From an uncultured virus (IMG/VR IMGVR_UViG_3300018475_001996) (taxonomy: Duplodnaviria; Heunggongvirae; Uroviricota; Caudoviricetes): a DNA stretch of 64,000 nucleotides. The position numbers and the translations under genes are program-made. The stretch spans positions 1 through 64,000 of IMG/VR virus record IMGVR_UViG_3300018475_001996, one strand, 5' to 3'. Below are positions 184-62,156 of this stretch, piece by piece. How positions within the stretch are numbered: position 1 is the first letter of the stretch; every line of letters begins with the position of its first letter. A model generated the notes under the pieces. That model did not search any database, was not told where the DNA came from, and saw nothing but the letters and a program-made list of their open reading frames with translations.

Positions 184-266
184 TCAGGGTAGCAGGATTC
201 GAACCTGCGATGTCACGAGGACGCTAGCTCCCGAAGCTAGTGGCAAACCAACCTGCCGCTACCCTG
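184..266 (-). tRNA. tRNA-Pro(CGG) with extended variable region
   Basis: CAGGGTA/TACCCTG acceptor, CTAGC-TTCGGGA-GCTAG anticodon arm, GCAGG-TTCGAAT-CCTGC T arm, ~15-nt variable region. Confidence 0.85.
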
Positions 267-353: not shown

Positions 354-1124
354 TTATTCAAACACATTTACCAAATTTTTATTTGGTAAAAAATGCTTAC
401 GTTTTTGTTCATCATGTTTACTATAGATTGGAATATATTTTTTAAACTTATTATGTAAAGCAATTTTAGATATTCCAAGTTCAATAGCCATATCTTCTAG
501 TTTGTTATAATTACCAGAATGATATTTATTCCATAACTTTTCAGCCAATATTTTTCCATTATCATGAAGTAATTTTATCCAAGCAGCTTTATTTATTGTT
601 ATACTATACTTACCAGATTTTTTTACTTTAATAATACTAGTTTCTCCATGAAAAAGATTTCGACCTTCAATCCAAAATGGTTCTAGTGGTTTTTCTTTAA
701 ACTTTTTAGATTCTCCAGTATTACGATTTGTATACCATTTAGTTCCAAATTGTGAATTTCTTTTTCCTGATTGGCTTATACTTGTTAATTTACTTATTGC
801 CGTAGAAAATTCAATTCTTAATTTTTCATAAACACGCGAATTAATATATCGTTTATGATTTTCATTAATACCTTGCATTCTCCATAATGCACATAACATT
901 TTATTTCTTTCAATAGTTCCTTTCTCATACATTTTAACAAGTAACCAATGACAGATAAAATGTTCTCTAGCAGTTAACTTAACAAGATTTTCTTTTTCGT
1001 TAGTTCCTCCTAATGATTTAGGTTGAATATGATGTTTTTCAAAATAACCTAAACTTCGCTTCCCATTTTCATTCTCCGTTTTTGCTTTTTCAATTATTTT
1101 ATAATATATGTTTTTGTAATTCAT
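354..1124 (-). mobile_element. free-standing HNH homing endonuclease inside tRNA array 1
   Basis: EKHHIQPKSLGGTNEKENLVKLTAREHFICHWLL HNH motif, NUMOD-like GKRNSQFGTKW, C-terminal HTH-like segment; flanked by tRNAs. Confidence 0.85.
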
Positions 1125-1352: not shown

Positions 1353-1392
1353 AAAATAAAAAATCCTGTAAGTTTTTATATCTTACAGGATT
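1352..1392 (-). terminator. intrinsic terminator (attenuator) directly upstream of tRNA array 1
   Basis: Perfect 11-bp stem AATCCTGTAAG/CTTACAGGATT followed by TTTTATTTTT. Confidence 0.85.
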
Positions 1393-1427
1393 CGTTTAAA
1401 TTCTCGTTTTATTCGATGAACCAAAAA

Positions 1428-1490
1428 CTAATCCTGTAGTACCTCAGGGTTATTCGGATTGACGGTATTTGTGTTCATCGTGAAAGTCAT
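1428..1490 (-). CDS. putative attenuator leader peptide MTFTMNTNTVNPNNPEVLQD (Thr/Asn/Pro-rich)
   Basis: 20-codon ORF after purine-rich AAGAGAGAA; its 3' end TACAGGATT is complementary to the terminator 5' arm. Confidence 0.8.
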   Translation of the reverse strand: MTFTMNTNTVNPNNPEVLQD

Positions 1491-4302: not shown

Positions 4303-5493
4303 TTAGAATGCAGCCTTGAAATTATAAACCGGCTTGATAATCTTTTCGATAGAACAAGTAGGTTCAATATTCAACATGATTTCTTCCATCGGCTTATAGG
4401 CCATAGGAGACTCATCGATAGTCGCAGAAGAAACACAAGAGGTAAAGATTCCCTTCATTGCTTCCTTATAATCCTTCATGGAAATAGAATTCTTGGCATC
4501 TGCACGAGTCATCAAACGACCGGCACCATGAGGAGCAGAATAGTTCTATTCCGGATTTCCCTTACCGACGCAAATCAAAGAACCATCACGCATATTCATC
4601 GGAATAATGACACGTTCGCCTTCCTGTGCAGAAATAGAACCCTTACGGAGAATCATATTCTTGAGGTCGATATAGTTATGGATAGTTTCAAATTTTTCTA
4701 CAACCTTGAATCCCATTTCCTTGACGATAACATCAAGCATGGCTGCACGGTTCATAACTGCAAACTGCTGGACAATTTCCATATCATGCAGATAACCTTC
4801 CATGTGCTCACCAGTCAAATAAGACAAATTCTTAGGAACGGAGAAATGGTCATAATCCTTCATGAGTTCCTTAATTTCTGCATCAGTCTTTCCTTGATTC
4901 TTATACTTAGCAATTTCGGCACCACGAATGGCTGTCAAATCAGCACAATCCTTGATTGCGATATTCTGCCAGTATTCACAAGTAGCTACGCCCAAATGGC
5001 GTGAACCGGAATGGATAACAACATAGAAAGCACCATCGTCGTCCTTATCTACTTCAATGAAATGGTTGCCTCCGCCGAGTGAACCTATAGATAAAAGCTC
5101 TTCACGGCGAACATCTGCAATAAGCTGTTCAAACTTTTCATCGAATTCATTACCGAAACGGTGACGGTTAGTACGATGTTCCTTACCGGACGGAATCTTT
5201 TCCTTGATAACCTTATCGAGCTTACCAAATTCGATAAACTTATCCTTGAGCTTTGCAACCAACATTCCGCAACCAATATCGACTCCAACAAGATTAGGAA
5301 CAACCTTATCCTTGATAGTCATAGTGGTTCCGACAGTACAATCCTTACCCGCATGCACGTCAGGCATGATAGCGACATTAACATCCCTTGCCCAACATTG
5401 ACACATCATATTCAAAATCTGTGAATATGCAGCATTATCGATGTTATCGGTAAAAACCTTAGCTGTATTATATTTTCCCTGTATATCTAACAT
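4303..5493 (-). CDS. rtcB: RtcB RNA ligase interrupted by one in-frame TAG (4546-4548)
   Basis: MPDVHAG, VGVDIGCG, GGGNHFIE, HSGSR, HNY and RKG motifs; frame continues GNPE*NYSAPHGAGR...DESPMAYK. Confidence 0.9.
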
Positions 5494-8185: not shown

Positions 8186-8680
8186 CTAAAACGGATTTTT
8201 TGCATTAAGAACAGTATCTTGAATATCAGCTACAAGAGCATCAAAACCAGAATATTCCTTCTGAATCTTCGGAAGCAACTGGTTATACGTGATTTTTCCA
8301 CTGAAAATATCCTTAATCTTCAGATACCAGATAACCTTGAAGCTCTTATCCGGTAAACGAACGCGAATCTTCAAGTCATCACGCGTCGTTTCATCCTTTT
8401 CCATATGTTCACAGATTTCGACAGTGGAATACTTCGCGAGTTCATCCTTAATAGTATTGAATTCAGTATCTGTAAATGCTACATCCTGAGATTCCGGCGT
8501 AAAGAGTTCAGTACGGTGCATAATACAATATGCATCCATATCAAGGTCCGGTTTCTTAGCTCGAAGCGCCTGCAAGCGGTTCCATTCACGCGTATTGACC
8601 TGTTCAGGATGAGCGTTTACTGCATCGACGATATTCTGATAAAGTTTGTCCCAATGTGCCTGACGTTCTGCTGAAGCCAT
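8186..8680 (-). CDS. hypothetical protein
   Basis: Likely start MASAERQ after AAAGGA. Confidence 0.6.
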   Translation of the reverse strand: MASAERQAHWDKLYQNIVDAVNAHPEQVNTREWNRLQALRAKKPDLDMDAYCIMHRTELFTPESQDVAFTDTEFNTIKDELAKYSTVEICEHMEKDETTRDDLKIRVRLPDKSFKVIWYLKIKDIFSGKITYNQLLPKIQKEYSGFDALVADIQDTVLNAKNPF

Positions 8681-8748
8681 AGTTTTTCCTTTTGTTAAAG
8701 TTTTTCTATAATATAATAAAAAGGTTGACATTCGTCAACCCTTTTTAG

Positions 8749-8837
8749 TGGACCCGACGAGATTCGAACTCGCGACCCATCGCTTAAAAGGCGATTGCTC
8801 TACGATGTTGCCATCTAACCAACTGAGCTACAGATCC
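8749..8837 (-). tRNA. tRNA-Lys(TTT) with a hairpin inserted in the D-loop
   Basis: ATCGC-CTTTTAA-GCGAT anticodon arm; D-loop contains GATG-GCAA-CATC. Confidence 0.85.
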
Positions 8838-8843
8838 ATATAA

Positions 8844-8931
8844 TTGAGGCGGCTGGATTTGAACCAGCGATGTGTCATTAACCGTACAGGATTCAAAGTC
8901 CCGCGCCTTCACCGGACTAGGCAACGCCTCA
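8844..8931 (-). tRNA. tRNA-Gln(TTG) with extended variable region
   Basis: TGAGGCG/CGCCTCA acceptor, CGGGA-CTTTGAA-TCCTG anticodon arm, ~18-nt variable region. Confidence 0.85.
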
Positions 8932-8940
8932 ATAATTTAG

Positions 8941-9014
8941 TACCCGAGGTGAGACTCGAACTCACAGGTGCGGATTAGAAGTCCGCTCGTTTGATCCTAT
9001 TAACGGACCCGGGC
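8941..9014 (-). tRNA. tRNA-Arg(TCT)
   Basis: GCGGA-CTTCTAA-TCCGC anticodon arm, GTGAG-TTCGAGT-CTCAC T arm. Confidence 0.85.
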
Positions 9015-9020
9015 AAAATA

Positions 9021-9106
9021 TCGGCATACAAGGAGTCGAACCTTCCCGGACCGCCCTGGTGTTTGCTACGGGCCGGTTTATAAGACCGGTCCAAGGGAGT
9101 ATGCCA
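9021..9106 (-). tRNA. non-canonical tRNA-Ile(TAT), no D arm, large variable arm
   Basis: GGCATAC/GTATGCC acceptor, CCGGT-CTTATAA-ACCGG anticodon arm, TTCGACT T-loop; only ~9-10 nt where the D arm should be. Confidence 0.7.
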
Positions 9107-9145
9107 ATGTAGTTTGTTTAAAGTGAGTAGCTCTCTCACTGTTCG

Positions 9146-9217
9146 TGGACCTATCCAGACTCGAACTGGAATCCGAAGATTAAAAGTCTCCTCGTCTACC
9201 TATTGACATATAGATCC
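9146..9217 (-). tRNA. tRNA-Lys(TTT)
   Basis: GGATCTA/TAGGTCC acceptor, GGAGA-CTTTTAA-TCTTC anticodon arm. Confidence 0.85.
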
Positions 9218-9224
9218 AAAGTAA

Positions 9225-9300
9225 TTGGGGCAGAGAGATTCGAACTCCCGAATAACGATTTCAGAGACCGTTGCCTTAAACCAGACTTGGCGATACCCCA
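9225..9300 (-). tRNA. tRNA-Gln(CTG)
   Basis: TGGGGTA acceptor, ACGGT-CTCTGAA-ATCGT anticodon arm, canonical T arm. Confidence 0.9.
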
Positions 9301-9306
9301 GTATAT

Positions 9307-9339
9307 AAAAAACAGTTCCTGTATTGCTACAGGAACCGT
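9307..9339 (-). terminator. intrinsic terminator (attenuator) directly upstream of tRNA array 2
   Basis: ACGGTTCCTGTA-GCAA-TACAGGAACTGT followed by TTTTT. Confidence 0.85.
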
Positions 9340-9366
9340 CTAATCAGATAAAGTGAAACTTATCGT

Positions 9367-9444
9367 CTATTCGCTACCCATAGCAAAACACACAGCAACT
9401 TGCTGTTTTCTTATCTGTTTTACTTGTTTAACGAACCTTAACAT
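9367..9444 (-). CDS. putative attenuator leader peptide MLRFVKQVKQIRKQQVAVCFAMGSE (Lys/Gln/Ile/Arg-rich)
   Basis: 25-codon ORF with AAAGGA RBS; TTGCTATGGG near its end pairs with CCTGTAGCAA of the terminator. Confidence 0.8.
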   Translation of the reverse strand: MLRFVKQVKQIRKQQVAVCFAMGSE

Positions 9445-9464
9445 TTTTCTGTTATCCTTTTGAT

Positions 9465-9530
9465 ATTATATATAGTTTTTATTTTTTAATTTTCGCTATA
9501 TAATATAGCAAAAACTTTTTCTTTTGTAAA
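9465..9530 (-). promoter_or_regulatory. tandem promoters for array 2: TTTACA-17-TATATT and TATATATAAT
   Basis: -35 at 9525-9530, -10 at 9502-9507; shares TTTTAGGGGTTTACAAAAG with the array 1 promoter. Confidence 0.7.
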
Positions 9531-9549
9531 CCCCTAAAAGGAAAATTTT

Positions 9550-9990
9550 TTAGTGGTTATCGTTATCAATGATAATCTTGGATTCAGGACAGAATACAAA
9601 ATTAAACAAAGCTTCCGGGTCACGAATGAATGCGCCAAGCATTGTTGCACGATAAACGCTCTGATGGTCAATATAACCTGAAATACCTTCAGTTGTTTCA
9701 GGAAGAACCAATGTAACCTGCTTGGAAGCAAAATATTCGATAACCTTATCTTTTTCAGTTTCATAACAGTCTGAAAGACCGCCATCCATACTGACAGCTA
9801 CAAGCCAGTAATCCAACAATTCAGCAGGGGTTTCCAATACCTCATAACCCCAGTCATAGTTTCCGGAACCTTCTACTTTGATAGTGCAAGGTTCTACATG
9901 AAGGTTCGCGTATGCGCTCGCACACGGGTAACAAATTTCATGCTGAGACGAACTATTTGTTTCAAACACACCAACTCTAAGAGTTTTCAT
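9550..9990 (-). CDS. hypothetical protein with RxGVFETNSSSxH motif
   Basis: N-terminal FETNSSS motif and GYIDHQS; same gene block as the radical SAM gene. Confidence 0.65.
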   Translation of the reverse strand: MKTLRVGVFETNSSSQHEICYPCASAYANLHVEPCTIKVEGSGNYDWGYEVLETPAELLDYWLVAVSMDGGLSDCYETEKDKVIEYFASKQVTLVLPETTEGISGYIDHQSVYRATMLGAFIRDPEALFNFVFCPESKIIIDNDNH

Positions 9991-15764: not shown

Positions 15765-16062
15765 AACGGAGAGATCTAGCCTAGCAGGAATCACTAGACT
15801 AAACACAGCTACTCTACTTTTGGCATAAAGTTTCGCGTGTCAATCTGGGGGACTTATGAACACTCTTACTGGTCGGTCATCCTGTACTCAGGCTACATAG
15901 TGTTCAGCCATGGCGGCAAGTGTATAGTTTGCTAAGCTATACTCGATAATCGAATCGCCTTTAACGTATACTTCCGATTTCAAAGTATACAGCGGCTTAG
16001 CCTCTACCGATAATACCATTGGATTGGATTTCGTTCCGAGGACTAAGGCTCGAATGTCAGGT
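15765..16062 (-). ncRNA. candidate structured non-coding RNA (~300 nt), family unknown
   Basis: GC-richer intergenic stretch after a TATATT -10 box, several hairpins, no ORF of 60 aa or more. Confidence 0.5.
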
Positions 16063-19031: not shown

Positions 19032-19056
19032 AGTATGTTTCCTTTTTAAATTTTAA

Positions 19057-19410
19057 TGGACCCGTTGGGAGTCGAACCCAAGTCTTGAATAACTTCAATA
19101 TCCGTTCCTACAAGCTTTCCCTTCGAATTTACTTATTTGTCATACCTATGCCCTGAAGGTCGGCGTCGGTATAAACTAGCCTGTGATTTTCGGAAATAAT
19201 AGACAGACTTAACTATTTCCTAGCCCATTTGCGACTGGACTCTACACCCAACGGGCGAACGATATAGGTCCAGGGTTGCTATTGATTAAGCAGCCATTGC
19301 GTATGTATTAGCAATTATTGTTTTCAGACTTTTTAACGTGTGTTTTCCCTCGTCTGAGACCACGGCTTGCAACTAATATATTCATCACCCAATCGAAACC
19401 AGGCGAGCCC
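19057..19410 (-). ncRNA. ssrA: tmRNA; tag reading frame ANTYAMAA* (19286-19312)
   Basis: 5' GGGCTCG...TTTCGA, 3' GACTTGGGTTCGACTCCCAACGGGTCCA tRNA-like domain, ~354 nt, resume context ATAATT-GCT, tag ending in AA*. Confidence 0.93.
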
Positions 19411-30454: not shown

Positions 30455-30625
30455 TTATTTATTCAGGAATTTATCGAAATCAGAAAGAACACCCTTAAGC
30501 GTCGGCTGAGGCTTCACTTCCTTATATGAATATGTTGTTTCACTGTTATCATAGTCATTCAACATATAAATGAGCATCATAAGAAAACACGGAATTGTTA
30601 CAAAAAGCAATAAAGCTAAAATCAT
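30455..30625 (-). CDS. small membrane protein (56 aa, not in ORF track)
   Basis: ATGA overlap with the upstream gene; MILALLLFVTIPCFLMMLIY...SDFDKFLNK. Confidence 0.6.
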   Translation of the reverse strand: MILALLLFVTIPCFLMMLIYMLNDYDNSETTYSYKEVKPQPTLKGVLSDFDKFLNK

Positions 30626-31461
30626 ACTTCAAATACCTTCTTGAAAGTGTCATAATTTGTCGTGTCTTCGCTGGAGCAATATACGGCGAATACGATATTC
30701 TTGAACGTATGTGTAAAGTGCTCAGAAATAACCTTCTTATAGGCCTTTGCTACAACTTCCGGCGGATTCCTGAAAGCGCCACAGCCAAATGCACCAAGAA
30801 TAACGGTTTCATTTCCGTGGAATGCAGCACAGGAAAGAATCTTAAATGCACGGGTTTCATGGAGCTTCTGAAGTTCTGCATTCGAAATCTTAACGCCTTC
30901 GCCATTTTCATGGTTATAGGCATTGGCCGGAGTTTCACGAAGATTCGGAGCCGCACAGGTAATGACGTTTACCTTAGCATTCTGGAAAAGGTTATTATAA
31001 CTGTCAGACTTAAGGATAACGACATCAGGAGTATAGATAATGTCATCATTGTGCAACGGCGTTCCATTCGTCTTATGGGGCGTGTAGAACAGTTCTTTTG
31101 CCCAATCAGTATTTAGACACTGGTAGAGCGTAGAACAGCGACAGAGACACTCTTCTTGAGCACTGGAGCCCTTCGTGACACCACCACCCGGATTAGTAGC
31201 CGAAGCAAAGTTCAAAACGGCAACCTTTCCGCCATACTTACGAGCAGTATTGAAAGAACCGTCCTTACATACAGTAATCTTTGCCGGAGCATCAAACGAC
31301 TGTTTTCGACCGTTCTTAAAATATTCGATAGACGATGCATCAGAATAGAATACCTGGTTCTTGTAAGAATACTTAACGGATTCCTGCAACTTAGGATCCT
31401 TTGCAATCTGGGCGAGCGTGTCGTTAAAAATCTTAATGTTTTCTGCTTTCTTGGAGTACAT
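30622..31461 (-). CDS. bacterial-type PARG / macrodomain protein (TIGR02452/DUF2263)
   Basis: LNFASATNPGGG, AQEECLCRCS and LGAFGCGAFRNPP motifs. Confidence 0.9.
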   Translation of the reverse strand: MYSKKAENIKIFNDTLAQIAKDPKLQESVKYSYKNQVFYSDASSIEYFKNGRKQSFDAPAKITVCKDGSFNTARKYGGKVAVLNFASATNPGGGVTKGSSAQEECLCRCSTLYQCLNTDWAKELFYTPHKTNGTPLHNDDIIYTPDVVILKSDSYNNLFQNAKVNVITCAAPNLRETPANAYNHENGEGVKISNAELQKLHETRAFKILSCAAFHGNETVILGAFGCGAFRNPPEVVAKAYKKVISEHFTHTFKNIVFAVYCSSEDTTNYDTFKKVFEV

Positions 31462-36214: not shown

Positions 36215-37444
36215 TTAGTTATCGTGTTCGACACGCCACTTGATAGCACCCTTCAGGTTCTGATGATATTCTTCATCCTTACCCATAAACTTGCCATCGT
36301 CGTCAGAAACCTTACAAACCGGAATACCGTTAACTTCAGTCAACTTGATAACCTGGTTCATGGCCTTAAACCAACCAGTATCATTAAGCAACCACGTACC
36401 GATACCGAACGCAACATTGCAACGAAGTGCAAAACGCTGATAGATAACTTCTGCCTTTGCGAAGTTCAACGAATCGCTGAACAAGAGAGTCTTGTTTGCA
36501 TACGGAACGCCAATCTTCATGTAATGGGCGAGCATCTTTTCACCCCAAGCAATCGGATCTGCGGAGTCATGTCGAACACCGCTGAAGAGACGAGCATAGG
36601 TTTCAGTAAAGTCCTTCAAGAAGCAATCTGTAGTGATACAGTCGGTAAGATAAATACCGTTCTTAGTACCATATTCCTTAATCCAGTGCTTCATCATGTA
36701 AAGGTTGGAATATGCCGGGTTATGCTGTGGCAAGCCCTGTCCGACGAGTTCGATAGCTTCATGAGCCATGGTACCAACCGGCTTAGTTCCGAGCAAGAAG
36801 CTGAAGTAAACATTGGAAGTACCAACAAACTTCGTACCGTTAAACTGGAACTGACTGATGTAACGGAGTGCCCATTCCTGGAATTCCTTACAGAAACGAC
36901 GACGAGTACCGAATTCGGAGAATACGCCAATCTTGATTTCACCCTTAATAAGCTTATCAATCTTTTCCTTAAAGCGTTGCTTTGCATCTTCGATAATCTG
37001 CTTCTGCTGTTCTTCAGTATAGGACATACGGAACCAAACTTCAGAAACAATAGACATCACCGGAACTTCATGATAAGAAACGTCAACATTGTAGCCGCGG
37101 AACTTAATATCCGGTTGCTGAAGCTTTTCATCGAACGTACAAACAATTTCATTACGGTCGATAGTATAACGCTTGAGGAAACGAACATAGTCGTTCTTCA
37201 TGAAATCAATCTTCTGGAAATGTTCCAATTCCCACGGCGTATAGCGGAGCTTTGAATACAAATCAATCTGATAATTGATTTCATCAATCATTTCGCGAGT
37301 GAACTTGCGTTCAGGATCACGGTTCTTATAAGTCCATTCCACATTCATGTCATGGAACTGGTGAACGAACATCTGACCCATAGTGTACTTATAAAAGTCA
37401 TTATCGGTCAAATGTGTGATAATTTGCGGCAAATGCTTTGTCAT
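36215..37444 (-). CDS. pncB: nicotinate phosphoribosyltransferase
   Basis: DFYKYTM, SEFGTRRR, GTSNV, GTMAHE, GVRHDSAD, FSDSL, FGIGT and KVSD motifs. Confidence 0.92.
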   Translation of the reverse strand: MTKHLPQIITHLTDNDFYKYTMGQMFVHQFHDMNVEWTYKNRDPERKFTREMIDEINYQIDLYSKLRYTPWELEHFQKIDFMKNDYVRFLKRYTIDRNEIVCTFDEKLQQPDIKFRGYNVDVSYHEVPVMSIVSEVWFRMSYTEEQQKQIIEDAKQRFKEKIDKLIKGEIKIGVFSEFGTRRRFCKEFQEWALRYISQFQFNGTKFVGTSNVYFSFLLGTKPVGTMAHEAIELVGQGLPQHNPAYSNLYMMKHWIKEYGTKNGIYLTDCITTDCFLKDFTETYARLFSGVRHDSADPIAWGEKMLAHYMKIGVPYANKTLLFSDSLNFAKAEVIYQRFALRCNVAFGIGTWLLNDTGWFKAMNQVIKLTEVNGIPVCKVSDDDGKFMGKDEEYHQNLKGAIKWRVEHDN

Positions 37445-60887: not shown

Positions 60888-62156
60888 TCATTCTTCAATA
60901 GTCCTCTGCACGTTAGAAGGTTCCAATTTTTTGTGAACTGCACGCTTAACAGATGCATAATTAGTGATATTACGATTAATGCACTTGATAGCCTGCATAA
61001 TAGCCCCAATATCGCTCTTATAGTGCTCCAGAGCGTATTCGTAGCGAGAACGCTGGTCTTCGCAAGCCTTCATGGTTTCGCGAGCCTCAGCGAGAACTTC
61101 TTCAGTACGTTCCTTAACCTGAATGCGGACACTTTCGGCGTATGCACGTAAATCAGGGAATTCTTCAGGAATATACAGAACTTCATCATCTACAGGCTTG
61201 TAACCGTTAGTCTTGTCGACATGGGCATGGAAGAAATCCTTTTCACAGTCATACGCTACCCAGATATTCCACTCGCTGAGGCATTCGAATATCTTTGCGA
61301 GCTGGCACCATTCATCGGATTTAACCTTGACCTTGAATCCATATTCCGGGAAAGTTACAACATAACCTTCCTGAGACGAAGGAAGCTTGGTCGCAGTATT
61401 TCGAGCGTCATTGAAATTATCGTATTCATAGATTTCTGCCATCTTGATTTGCCAAGTATTGGCATAAGCGCTAAGTCCAATAATATGCTCTTCAGCACCA
61501 GTTTCATTGTCGATAACTGCCAAAAGAACAAGACCTTCAAAATCATAACGAATCGGGTGAAAATCTTCATTTGAAACAATTTCAAACAAATAAGTTTTCT
61601 TCGGATTCAAAGTTGCCGCATGAGGACCGCCGATATGCTGGTCAAACCAACGCTGTCCCCAAATTGCCTGGTCAGAATCGAAAGATCCACCGGTCTTCAA
61701 CTGCCAATGCTTAAGATAAGGATTCCAGAATACAATACCTAAAGAACCGTCCACCTTTTCCATAGTCAGGAAACGAATAGACTTGAGAATCTTTCGAATA
61801 TCAATTTTCTTCTGGTACTTCATTACCTTTTTTGCAAGGTCGGTAAGTTCGCCAGTTTCGTTGTTAATCAATTCGCCATAGTTGAAGAATTTATCAAAAG
61901 GACGTGCTACAATTTCGCCGGTTTCAGAATCGAAAACAATACCACGAGCATTGAGAGTAATTTCATCCCAATCCGATGAATATACTGTTTCACGAGTATA
62001 CTTGAAACCAACCAGCTTACCATACCAGTGAGCTGAAATACGTCCCTTCTTTGCTGCCTTCAAATACTTACGGAGTCTGTGCTTGTTCCGCAGTTTCCGG
62101 AGTAGGTTCTTCAGCCAAGTCATCATTTTTCTTTTCCACCTTTTTCTTAGGCTCAT
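60888..62156 (-). CDS. T4 Rnl1-type RNA ligase (true start probably a little downstream)
   Basis: ARGIVF, FDKFFN, EKVDGSL, FEI, EGYVV and KVK motifs. Confidence 0.85.
   Translation of the reverse strand: MSLRKRWKRKMMTWLKNLLRKLRNKHRLRKYLKAAKKGRISAHWYGKLVGFKYTRETVYSSDWDEITLNARGIVFDSETGEIVARPFDKFFNYGELINNETGELTDLAKKVMKYQKKIDIRKILKSIRFLTMEKVDGSLGIVFWNPYLKHWQLKTGGSFDSDQAIWGQRWFDQHIGGPHAATLNPKKTYLFEIVSNEDFHPIRYDFEGLVLLAVIDNETGAEEHIIGLSAYANTWQIKMAEIYEYDNFNDARNTATKLPSSQEGYVVTFPEYGFKVKVKSDEWCQLAKIFECLSEWNIWVAYDCEKDFFHAHVDKTNGYKPVDDEVLYIPEEFPDLRAYAESVRIQVKERTEEVLAEARETMKACEDQRSRYEYALEHYKSDIGAIMQAIKCINRNITNYASVKRAVHKKLEPSNVQRTIEE

Follow-up and report, generated by a model that had tools for sequence, protein, structure and literature searches.

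A putative leader-peptide attenuator with array-matched codons ahead of tRNA genes in a T4-like megaphage lineage

The window considered here, 64,000 nucleotides (nt) long, is the first 64 kb of the 136.6-kb IMG/VR record IMGVR_UViG_3300018475_001996, which derives from an uncultured virus of the Caudoviricetes. On its minus strand, a short leader open reading frame (ORF) and a predicted intrinsic terminator precede a group of transfer RNA (tRNA) genes, named array 2. The anatomy of this module, the match between leader codons and array anticodons, the covariation of the two and the alternative folds obtained in silico point to a ribosome-mediated transcription attenuator, in which transcription of the array would depend on the speed of a ribosome over codons that the array itself decodes. 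The probability of this reading is put at about 0.8. The phage is a T4-like megaphage from ruminant gut samples. A 411-kb genome (G001, 98% complete) has leaders identical to those of the window and represents the same phage at full length, while the relative G002, complete at 424 kb, has terminal repeats; each carries more than 50 tRNA genes, grouped in arrays. Also compared are fragments of further relatives (G003-G005) and L-numbered loci, which include metagenome-contig variants (L077, L078, L080, L083 and L084).

A first-pass annotation, made from the sequence, had proposed a minus-strand order of promoters, AAAGGA ribosome-binding site, 25-codon ORF, hairpin with U-run and tRNA genes, and all these elements have been located (Table 1). 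The hairpin had been described as 12 bp long at 9339-9307; hairpin and U-run are indeed present, but the stem measures 14 pairs, at 9341-9310. The phage-wide motif that contains the first promoter, P1, occurs at 9 places in the 136.6-kb record and also heads arrays in relatives. Elements of the TTTTTATATATAATA type stand ahead of most leaders in G001, G002, G004 and G005. A short ORF with a start codon and a ribosome-binding site close behind a promoter, the arrangement expected of a leader attenuator, is thus found here, with comparable contexts in 14 further leader ORFs from an automatic scan, which have AAAGG-type motifs ahead of them. Only 6 nt separate the U-run from the start of tRNA-Gln(CTG) at 9300, and no promoter follows the predicted terminator. 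As this leaves no room for a promoter of its own, the array must be transcribed through the terminator. Equivalent terminator hairpins are present in 16 of 16 leaders.

Table 1. Position of the leader modules, array 2 and two RNA ligase genes in the window
Feature	Position	Strand	Basis or remark
P1, sigma-70-like TTTACA-17-TATATT with TG, within phage-wide motif GGGGTTTACAAAAG	9502-9530	-	10/12 matches
P2, second -10-like element TATATATAATAT	9465-9476	-	TATAAT at 9470-9465; putative, by sequence reading
Shine-Dalgarno-like AAAGGA	9455-9460	-	10 nt upstream of ATG
Leader ORF of array 2, 25 codons and TAG, encodes MLRFVKQVKQIRKQQVAVCFAMGSE	9367-9444	-	ATG at 9444, TAG at 9369-9367
Sensor run, codons 6-15: AAA CAA GTA AAA CAG ATA AGA AAA CAG CAA	9400-9429	-	9/10 array-cognate
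Antiterminator strand UUGCUAUGGG, ORF codons 20-23	9377-9386	-	Pairs with CCUGUAGCAA, 9333-9324
Small spacer hairpin between stop codon and terminator	9347-9364	-	Enclosed by the antiterminator helix
Predicted intrinsic terminator: 14-pair stem with GCAA loop (9341-9310), T6 (9312-9307)	9307-9341	-	Hairpin free energy -16.1 kcal/mol
tRNA-Gln(CTG)	9225-9300	-	ARAGORN, Rfam
tRNA-Lys(TTT)	9145-9217	-	ARAGORN, Rfam
Non-canonical tRNA-like gene, anticodon loop CUUAUAA (Ile, TAT)	~9023-9105	-	Acceptor, anticodon and T arms fold
tRNA-Arg(TCT)	8940-9014	-	ARAGORN, Rfam
tRNA-Gln(TTG), 90 nt, long variable arm	8843-8932	-	ARAGORN, Rfam
Non-canonical tRNA-Lys(TTT), 87 nt, extra GCAA-capped hairpin behind D arm	8750-8836	-	Rfam 30 bits at 8749-8820
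Terminator closing array 2	8718-8745	-	
Second module, ahead of array 1: leader MTFTMNTNTVNPNNPEVLQD (1490-1428) and terminator (1392-1357)	1357-1490	-	
RtcB-like ligase	4546-5493	-	Pfam E 5e-39; ORF spans only profile positions 139-341
T4 Rnl1-type RNA ligase	60888-62156	-	

The central feature of the leader is its codon content. Reading of codons 6-15 confirms that nine of the ten are Watson-Crick cognates of the anticodons CTG, TTT, TAT, TCT and TTG, and that all five anticodons of the array are covered. The background frequency of the five corresponding codons is 0.116, and when all six frames of the 136.6-kb record are read in windows of ten codons (~273,000 in total), only 3 loci reach a score of 9/10. 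The design is repeated within the window ahead of array 1, composed of Asn(GTT), Pro(AGG), Pro(CGG) and Thr(AGT), which has a Thr/Asn/Pro leader, the same two promoter elements as array 2 and a terminator with complementarity between its 5' arm and the final leader codons. Overall, 13 leaders forming seven families stand ahead of arrays with matching anticodons in G001 and G002, and more are found in G003-G005 and in metagenome contigs. Family A combines Lys(TTT), Gln, Ile(TAT) and Arg(TCT) arrays with leaders containing AAA, CAA, ATA and AGA, and in some cases CAG. The arrays of family B1 hold Asn, Pro(AGG), Pro(CGG) and Thr(AGT), behind leaders rich in Thr, Asn and Pro codons, and those of family B2 Asn, Pro(TGG), Thr(TGT), Val(TAC) and Met; family C serves Glu, Ala and Phe. 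Family D arrays (Asp, Lys(CTT), Gly, His, Arg(ACG) and Arg(CCT)) have leaders in which Lys is written AAG. In family E (Trp, five to six Leu and Ser(GCT)) all leader Ser codons are AGY and the peptide has a hydrophobic, signal-like appearance, while in family F (Tyr, Cys, Met, Ile(GAT), Ser(GGA), Ser(TGA), Ser(CGA) and Gln(CTG)) all leader Ser codons are TCN.

The specificity of the match was scored with conservative wobble rules for decoding. A leader has 0.45-0.72 of its codons decoded by its own array, as compared to mostly <=0.2 by other arrays. The first-pass annotation had suggested comparing leader codons and array anticodons across related phages against shuffled controls, and the two do co-vary. 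In G002 the true assignment of leaders to arrays has the highest summed match of all 5040 (1/5040 reach it), and in G001 2/5040 reach the true score, the tie being a swap of B1 and B2. In the reading frame of the leaders 195/347 codons are cognate, whereas the two alternative frames give 38/347 and 55/347. Within the ORFs, cognate codons cluster centrally (169/231) and are far fewer among the last six sense codons (14/78). A single leader polls as many as eight different anticodons. The match extends to the choice between synonymous codons, for which the counts are of distinct leader variants that are related and not independent. Lys is encoded as AAA rather than AAG (15:1) ahead of Lys(TTT) arrays and as AAG (14:0) ahead of Lys(CTT). 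Likewise, Ser codons are AGY (20:0) ahead of Ser(GCT) and TCN (16:0) ahead of Ser(GGA/TGA/CGA), and Arg codons are AGA in family A and CGN or AGG in family D. The match is codon-specific, not amino-acid-specific.

Variants of family A retrieved by a metagenome scan illustrate what is conserved. The peptides drift, as seen in L078 (MLRFVKQVKQIRKQQRCWCFAMG, with CAG and CAA exchanged at two positions and a new AGA), in G002 and G003 (MMSIRKQIRIRKQGSPWF), in L084 (MMNARKQIRQIRKQGVPWF) and in L083 (MKMIRKQIRKQIQGIRKPWFGFVY), while the central codons stay AAA, CAA, ATA and AGA. The reading frame is kept in all of these, with coding indels in multiples of three, so that frame and codon match are both conserved at homologous loci, another point raised by the first-pass annotation. 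CAG is present in A-leaders only where the array starts with tRNA-Gln(CTG), as in G001, L077, L078 and L080. In G002 and G005, which have Gln(CTG) at the end of array F, leader F contains three CAG codons, and that of G001 contains one. The terminator arms TTCCTGT/ACAGGAA are common to other leaders and undergo a compensatory change in L083. In the diverged A-leaders (L030 of G002, L032 of G003, L083 and L084) a TATAAAT -10 element lies ~7 nt upstream of the start codon and a Shine-Dalgarno sequence is lacking, and their translation may be from leaderless mRNAs.

Folding of the leader RNA provides the second line of evidence. The window leader folds far better than shuffled sequences (-49.6 kcal/mol, z = -6.7). 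In the free RNA the codon run is paired with the distal part of the ORF and the terminator is formed; this trp-like 1:2 hairpin of the untranslated leader, which engages the antiterminator strand, is a feature absent from the first-pass annotation. That annotation did propose that the distal strand of the leader can pair with the terminator arm and thereby exclude the terminator, and the UUGCUAUGGG/CCUGUAGCAA helix is recovered as the outer helix of the minimum-energy fold when the 5' half of the ORF is masked. A ribosome was then represented by ending the transcript before the terminator 3' arm and masking the RNA to 12 nt beyond the A-site codon. With the ribosome at codons 2-16, 9/11 terminator-arm nt pair with UUGCUAUGGG, as compared to 1/11 with the ribosome in the last seven codons or at the stop. 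A mid-ORF ribosome leaves 4-11 nt of the terminator 5' arm paired with the ORF end in 16/16 leaders, whereas with the ribosome at the stop 0-5 arm nt are paired in the leaders folded, except in L083 (8). When the intervening sequence is shuffled (200 trials, scored on observed pairing and energy), the observed values are matched in 0-6/200 trials for 15 leaders, the window leader giving 5/200. Together with the recurrence of the module and the leader-array covariation, this constrained-fold switch supports the attenuator layout and its interpretation, as first suggested from the sequence.

The working of array 2 can be outlined on this basis. Transcripts started at P1 or P2 would meet the terminator 6 nt before the first tRNA, and the array would be expressed only by read-through. 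A ribosome would translate the 25-codon leader. As long as Lys-UUU, Gln-UUG/CUG, Ile-UAU and Arg-UCU are plentiful, it would reach the last codons or the stop and cover UUGCUAUGGG; the terminator would then form and transcription would stop. Should any of the cognate tRNAs be scarce, uncharged or cleaved, the ribosome would linger in codons 6-15 and leave UUGCUAUGGG free to pair with the terminator 5' arm. With the antiterminator formed, RNA polymerase would enter the array and the missing tRNAs would be made, the outcome being a negative feedback at isoacceptor resolution. Because the untranslated window leader folds on itself into the 1:2 hairpin, the terminator should form in that case too, as in trp. 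The same module, with leaders matched to their arrays, would gate the remaining large arrays in this lineage of ~410-kb phages. We infer translation of the ORF, activity of the terminator, ribosome-dependent switching and the physiological trigger from the sequence.

Several observations weigh against this reading. A-leaders of the G002 type lack any Shine-Dalgarno sequence, and a transcript from P2, if used, would start within or beside that of the window leader. G001 and G002 are related, so their permutation tests are not independent, and ~44% of all leader codons are non-cognate, chiefly near ORF ends. As for the folds, L083 keeps 8/12 arm nt paired with the ribosome at the stop, and the antiterminator of the G002 A-leader is weak, being equalled by 29/200 shuffles. 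Leader F of G001 (L025 1300-1395, G001:212299-212394) has an in-frame TAA at codon 9, a position that reads TCA in the relative G005; either the TAA is an assembly variant, or it is a nonsense mutation that would uncouple the attenuator. One sub-array of G001 and isolated tRNA genes have promoters but no leader. The RNA-library data are assembled contigs, which cover the leader and bridge the terminator: one of 673 nt from a related strain covers 9462-9224 and 9140-8840, with DNA carry-over possible, and others cover 9419-9700. Such contigs show neither ends, strand nor level, and gaps in their coverage carry no information. Finally, in the T5-like Klebsiella phage PP738782 the small ORFs ahead of tRNAs are not cognate-rich and have no terminators; the design is therefore not universal.

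Other explanations of the module have been considered. A post-transcriptional role, in which ribosome traffic on the leader and the hairpins would set the 5'-end processing or stability of the pre-tRNA, for example through RNase access, and in which the U-run hairpin would be a processing or stability element and not a regulated terminator, would agree with the short distance between hairpin and first tRNA, with the RNA-library contig that bridges the hairpin in the related strain and with the odd tRNA-like elements at several array starts. It is nevertheless unlikely, as the hairpin and its T-run have the canonical form of an intrinsic terminator, and as the mutually exclusive pairing of the ORF end, kept in 16 leaders and better than in shuffles, is not needed by a plain processing site. 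We consider it very unlikely that the terminator is leaky in a constitutive manner and that the ORFs encode functional peptides or undergo non-regulatory translation, the codon match being a by-product of, for instance, efficient translation by the neighbouring tRNAs. The seven unrelated peptides have the match to their own array as sole common property, variation within family A preserves the codon set and not the peptide, and the need to pair with the terminator arm constrains the ORF ends. What speaks for this idea is the resemblance of leader E to a hydrophobic signal-like peptide, and the purely sequence-based nature of the favoured attenuator reading.

Codon-anticodon complementarity would equally be the signal of a ribosome-independent switch, in which tRNAs would bind leader codons through their anticodons, in the manner of a T-box with several specifiers, and stabilise one fold; the highly structured leader RNA would suit such a device. 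Its probability is judged to be very small indeed, since the cognate triplets are enriched in the single frame that is set by the ATG and the Shine-Dalgarno sequence, frame and stop are conserved with indels in multiples of three, no Rfam family, T-box included, matches the leader region, and the codons are buried in a long helix in the free RNA. A chance association of an A-rich intergenic stretch, harbouring an ORF rich in AAA, CAA, AGA and ATA, with a gene-end terminator is effectively refuted. The region is A-rich and two other loci of the record also reach 9/10, but these three loci are the only ones at that level among all ten-codon windows, the design recurs with leaders that are not A-rich (Leu/Ser/Trp, Asp/Gly/His, Ala/Glu/Phe), and both the permutation and the frame tests oppose it.

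The six tRNA genes named for array 2 by the first-pass annotation are of two kinds. ARAGORN and Rfam agree on four canonical tRNAs, Gln(CTG), Lys(TTT), Arg(TCT) and Gln(TTG), whereas Ile(TAT) and the second Lys(TTT) are non-canonical genes. The Ile(TAT) element is detected by neither ARAGORN nor Rfam; its acceptor and T stems stay paired through 5 compensatory changes in 3 related strains, and the homologous arrays of G002 and G003 hold a canonical Ile(TAT) in its place. The second Lys(TTT) is a weak match that ARAGORN detects under relaxed settings only. An intron-mode 'Stop(tta)' (8748-8837) and an ARAGORN 'Pyl(cta)' in L084 were rejected as false readings, which overlap the terminator or tRNA-Lys.

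Many tRNAs of the phage are non-canonical (8750-8836, 8843-8932, 9023-9105 and 184-266 (-) in the window; L078; G004). Additional hairpins with GNRA caps, or else long variable arms, are found on its Gln, Pro, Arg, Lys and Ile tRNAs. Their inserts recur (…ACATCG; CGTAACTGGARCTGCAAAT) and could be identity elements or serve evasion of host nucleases. Other tRNA-like elements are given 2- or 4-nt 'anticodons' by ARAGORN (window ~1350-1270 and ~180-110 (-); L015 1570-1660 and 1975-2055). Several of them start with GTTCCTAT, and one separates P1 from P2 in leader D. In array 1, the first element lacks a normal loop and has an anticodon arm that is extended and palindromic. An ORF with a weak HNH endonuclease match (354-1124 (-); Pfam E 3e-4, 21.3 bits, just short of the 21.4-bit cut-off) sits inside array 1 at the junction of Asn(GTT) and Pro(AGG), and similar ORFs break arrays in G001, G003 and G005. 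In G002 (L031 2100-4360) a matched leader, MQLVVTTNVTPVNNPKVTFD, precedes the sub-array composed of Asn(GTT), Pro(TGG), Thr(TGT), Met and Val(TAC), whereas its G001 counterpart (L022 12380-13600) has a bare promoter only, a natural gain or loss of an attenuator. A scan of IMG/VR with a degenerate terminator pattern yielded 37 loci, of which 11 are attenuators of this lineage and the remaining ones unrelated terminators without downstream tRNAs. By blastn, the region 8600-9700 gives tRNA-length matches only among GenBank phages, and no homologous leader.

Besides the tRNA arrays, the window encodes a family-B DNA polymerase, UvsX, RtcB, a T4 Rnl1-type RNA ligase, PARG, nicotinate phosphoribosyltransferase and a transfer-messenger RNA (tmRNA). 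The RtcB-like ORF may be N-terminally truncated or split. RtcB and the Rnl1-type ligase are tRNA-repair enzymes located in the same window as the arrays, and their genes are circumstantial context for a trigger by host anticodon nucleases. General homeostasis of the tRNA supply fits equally well, and a mismatch between the host tRNA pool and phage codon usage early in infection would serve as trigger too. Tentatively, and with less conviction than for the attenuator itself, the seven multivalent attenuators might be seen as a genome-wide, codon-resolved circuit that polls nearly every isoacceptor of the phage, switches blocks of tRNAs separately, senses the loss of particular host isoacceptors, including cleavage by anticodon nucleases, and makes good precisely that loss, beside the repair enzymes RtcB and Rnl1. 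On this view the leaders would serve a counter-defence as sensors of damage, besides being economy devices. The microbial-type PARG (30622-31461 (-)) and the nicotinate phosphoribosyltransferase (36215-37444 (-)) are candidate counter-measures to ADP-ribosylation or NAD-depletion defences. The tmRNA lies at 19054-19410 (-) and has the tag ANTYAMAA, and the region 15845-15948 (-) matches the 'cow-rumen-2' small RNA family of Rfam with 94.5 bits.

Multivalent leader-peptide attenuators are known in enterobacteria, where they control ilvGMEDA (Ile/Leu/Val) and thr (Thr/Ile). As in these systems, the module described here has a promoter-proximal short ORF with a codon run for several amino acids, and a terminator 5' arm that can instead pair with an ORF-distal strand, the position of the ribosome being the element that would select the fold. 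The regulated genes are tRNA genes and not biosynthetic enzymes, and no sequence or Rfam similarity to these systems was found for the leader. Since the match is at the level of synonymous codons and isoacceptors (AAA versus AAG, AGY versus TCN), the signal would be the supply of tRNA rather than of amino acid. At the gathering score, Rfam reports no leader or riboswitch family in the window. With tRNA genes as targets and no Rfam leader family, the module would therefore be attenuator-like in its working and a member of no described family. The trp-type scheme of 1:2, 2:3 and 3:4 structures is presented in its pheA version in PMC3082878. Like trp, the window leader can form 1:2, 2:3 (antiterminator) and 3:4 (terminator) structures, with 1:2 and the terminator in the untranslated RNA. 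It differs in that the ORF runs through strand 2, with the stop 25-37 nt before the terminator arm, and in that the sensor codons are mixed instead of a tandem run of one codon. Moreover, in most paralogous leaders the free RNA already adopts the antiterminator.

The pheST attenuator, with its pheM leader, and the T-box riboswitches place the translation apparatus under the control of tRNA charging. They resemble the present module in that the choice between terminator and antiterminator lets charged-tRNA supply act back on genes for the decoding machinery. However, pheM controls a synthetase and polls one amino acid, while T-boxes make direct contact with uncharged tRNA, no ribosome being involved, and are marked by conserved Stem I and T-box motifs. 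Neither motif is present here, and none of the 11 gathering-level Rfam matches in the window is a T-box. To our knowledge, neither controls tRNA genes. Phage tRNA sets compensate codon-usage mismatch or host defences that cleave tRNAs, as in the Pnk/Rnl1 repair of PrrC damage by T4 and in the arrays of T5-like phages. The present phage resembles these in being large, with >50 tRNA genes and with RtcB and Rnl1-type ligases in the window, and we know of no description of the T4- or T5-type systems as regulated by decoding speed. Full-text searches, judged mainly from listings and abstracts and with subscription-only literature outside their scope, returned no published account of leader-peptide attenuation of tRNA genes, in line with the first-pass statement that none was known for phage tRNA arrays. 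A possible precedent, the E. coli tRNA-Phe gene pheV with a Phe-rich leader, was discarded: the MG1655 sequence upstream of pheV, the only such gene examined, shows no such leader.

Textbooks describe leader-peptide attenuation as a control of amino-acid biosynthesis and tRNA-charging genes, and we know of no case in which it acts on the tRNA genes themselves. The modules described here probably apply this textbook logic in a new setting, that of tRNA genes read at the level of the isoacceptor. The loop would be the shortest possible, as the decoding speed of a codon appears to control the synthesis of the very tRNA that reads it, with synonymous-codon resolution and over about fifty tRNA genes in one virus. 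If true, it would explain how the large tRNA complements of giant phages are regulated, and it would provide a natural and compact sensor of the availability of single isoacceptors, usable as a reporter for tRNA depletion or anticodon-nuclease activity. It would also open the long-standing question of why phages carry tRNAs to direct tests, since the codons that the phage treats as limiting would be spelled out in its leaders.

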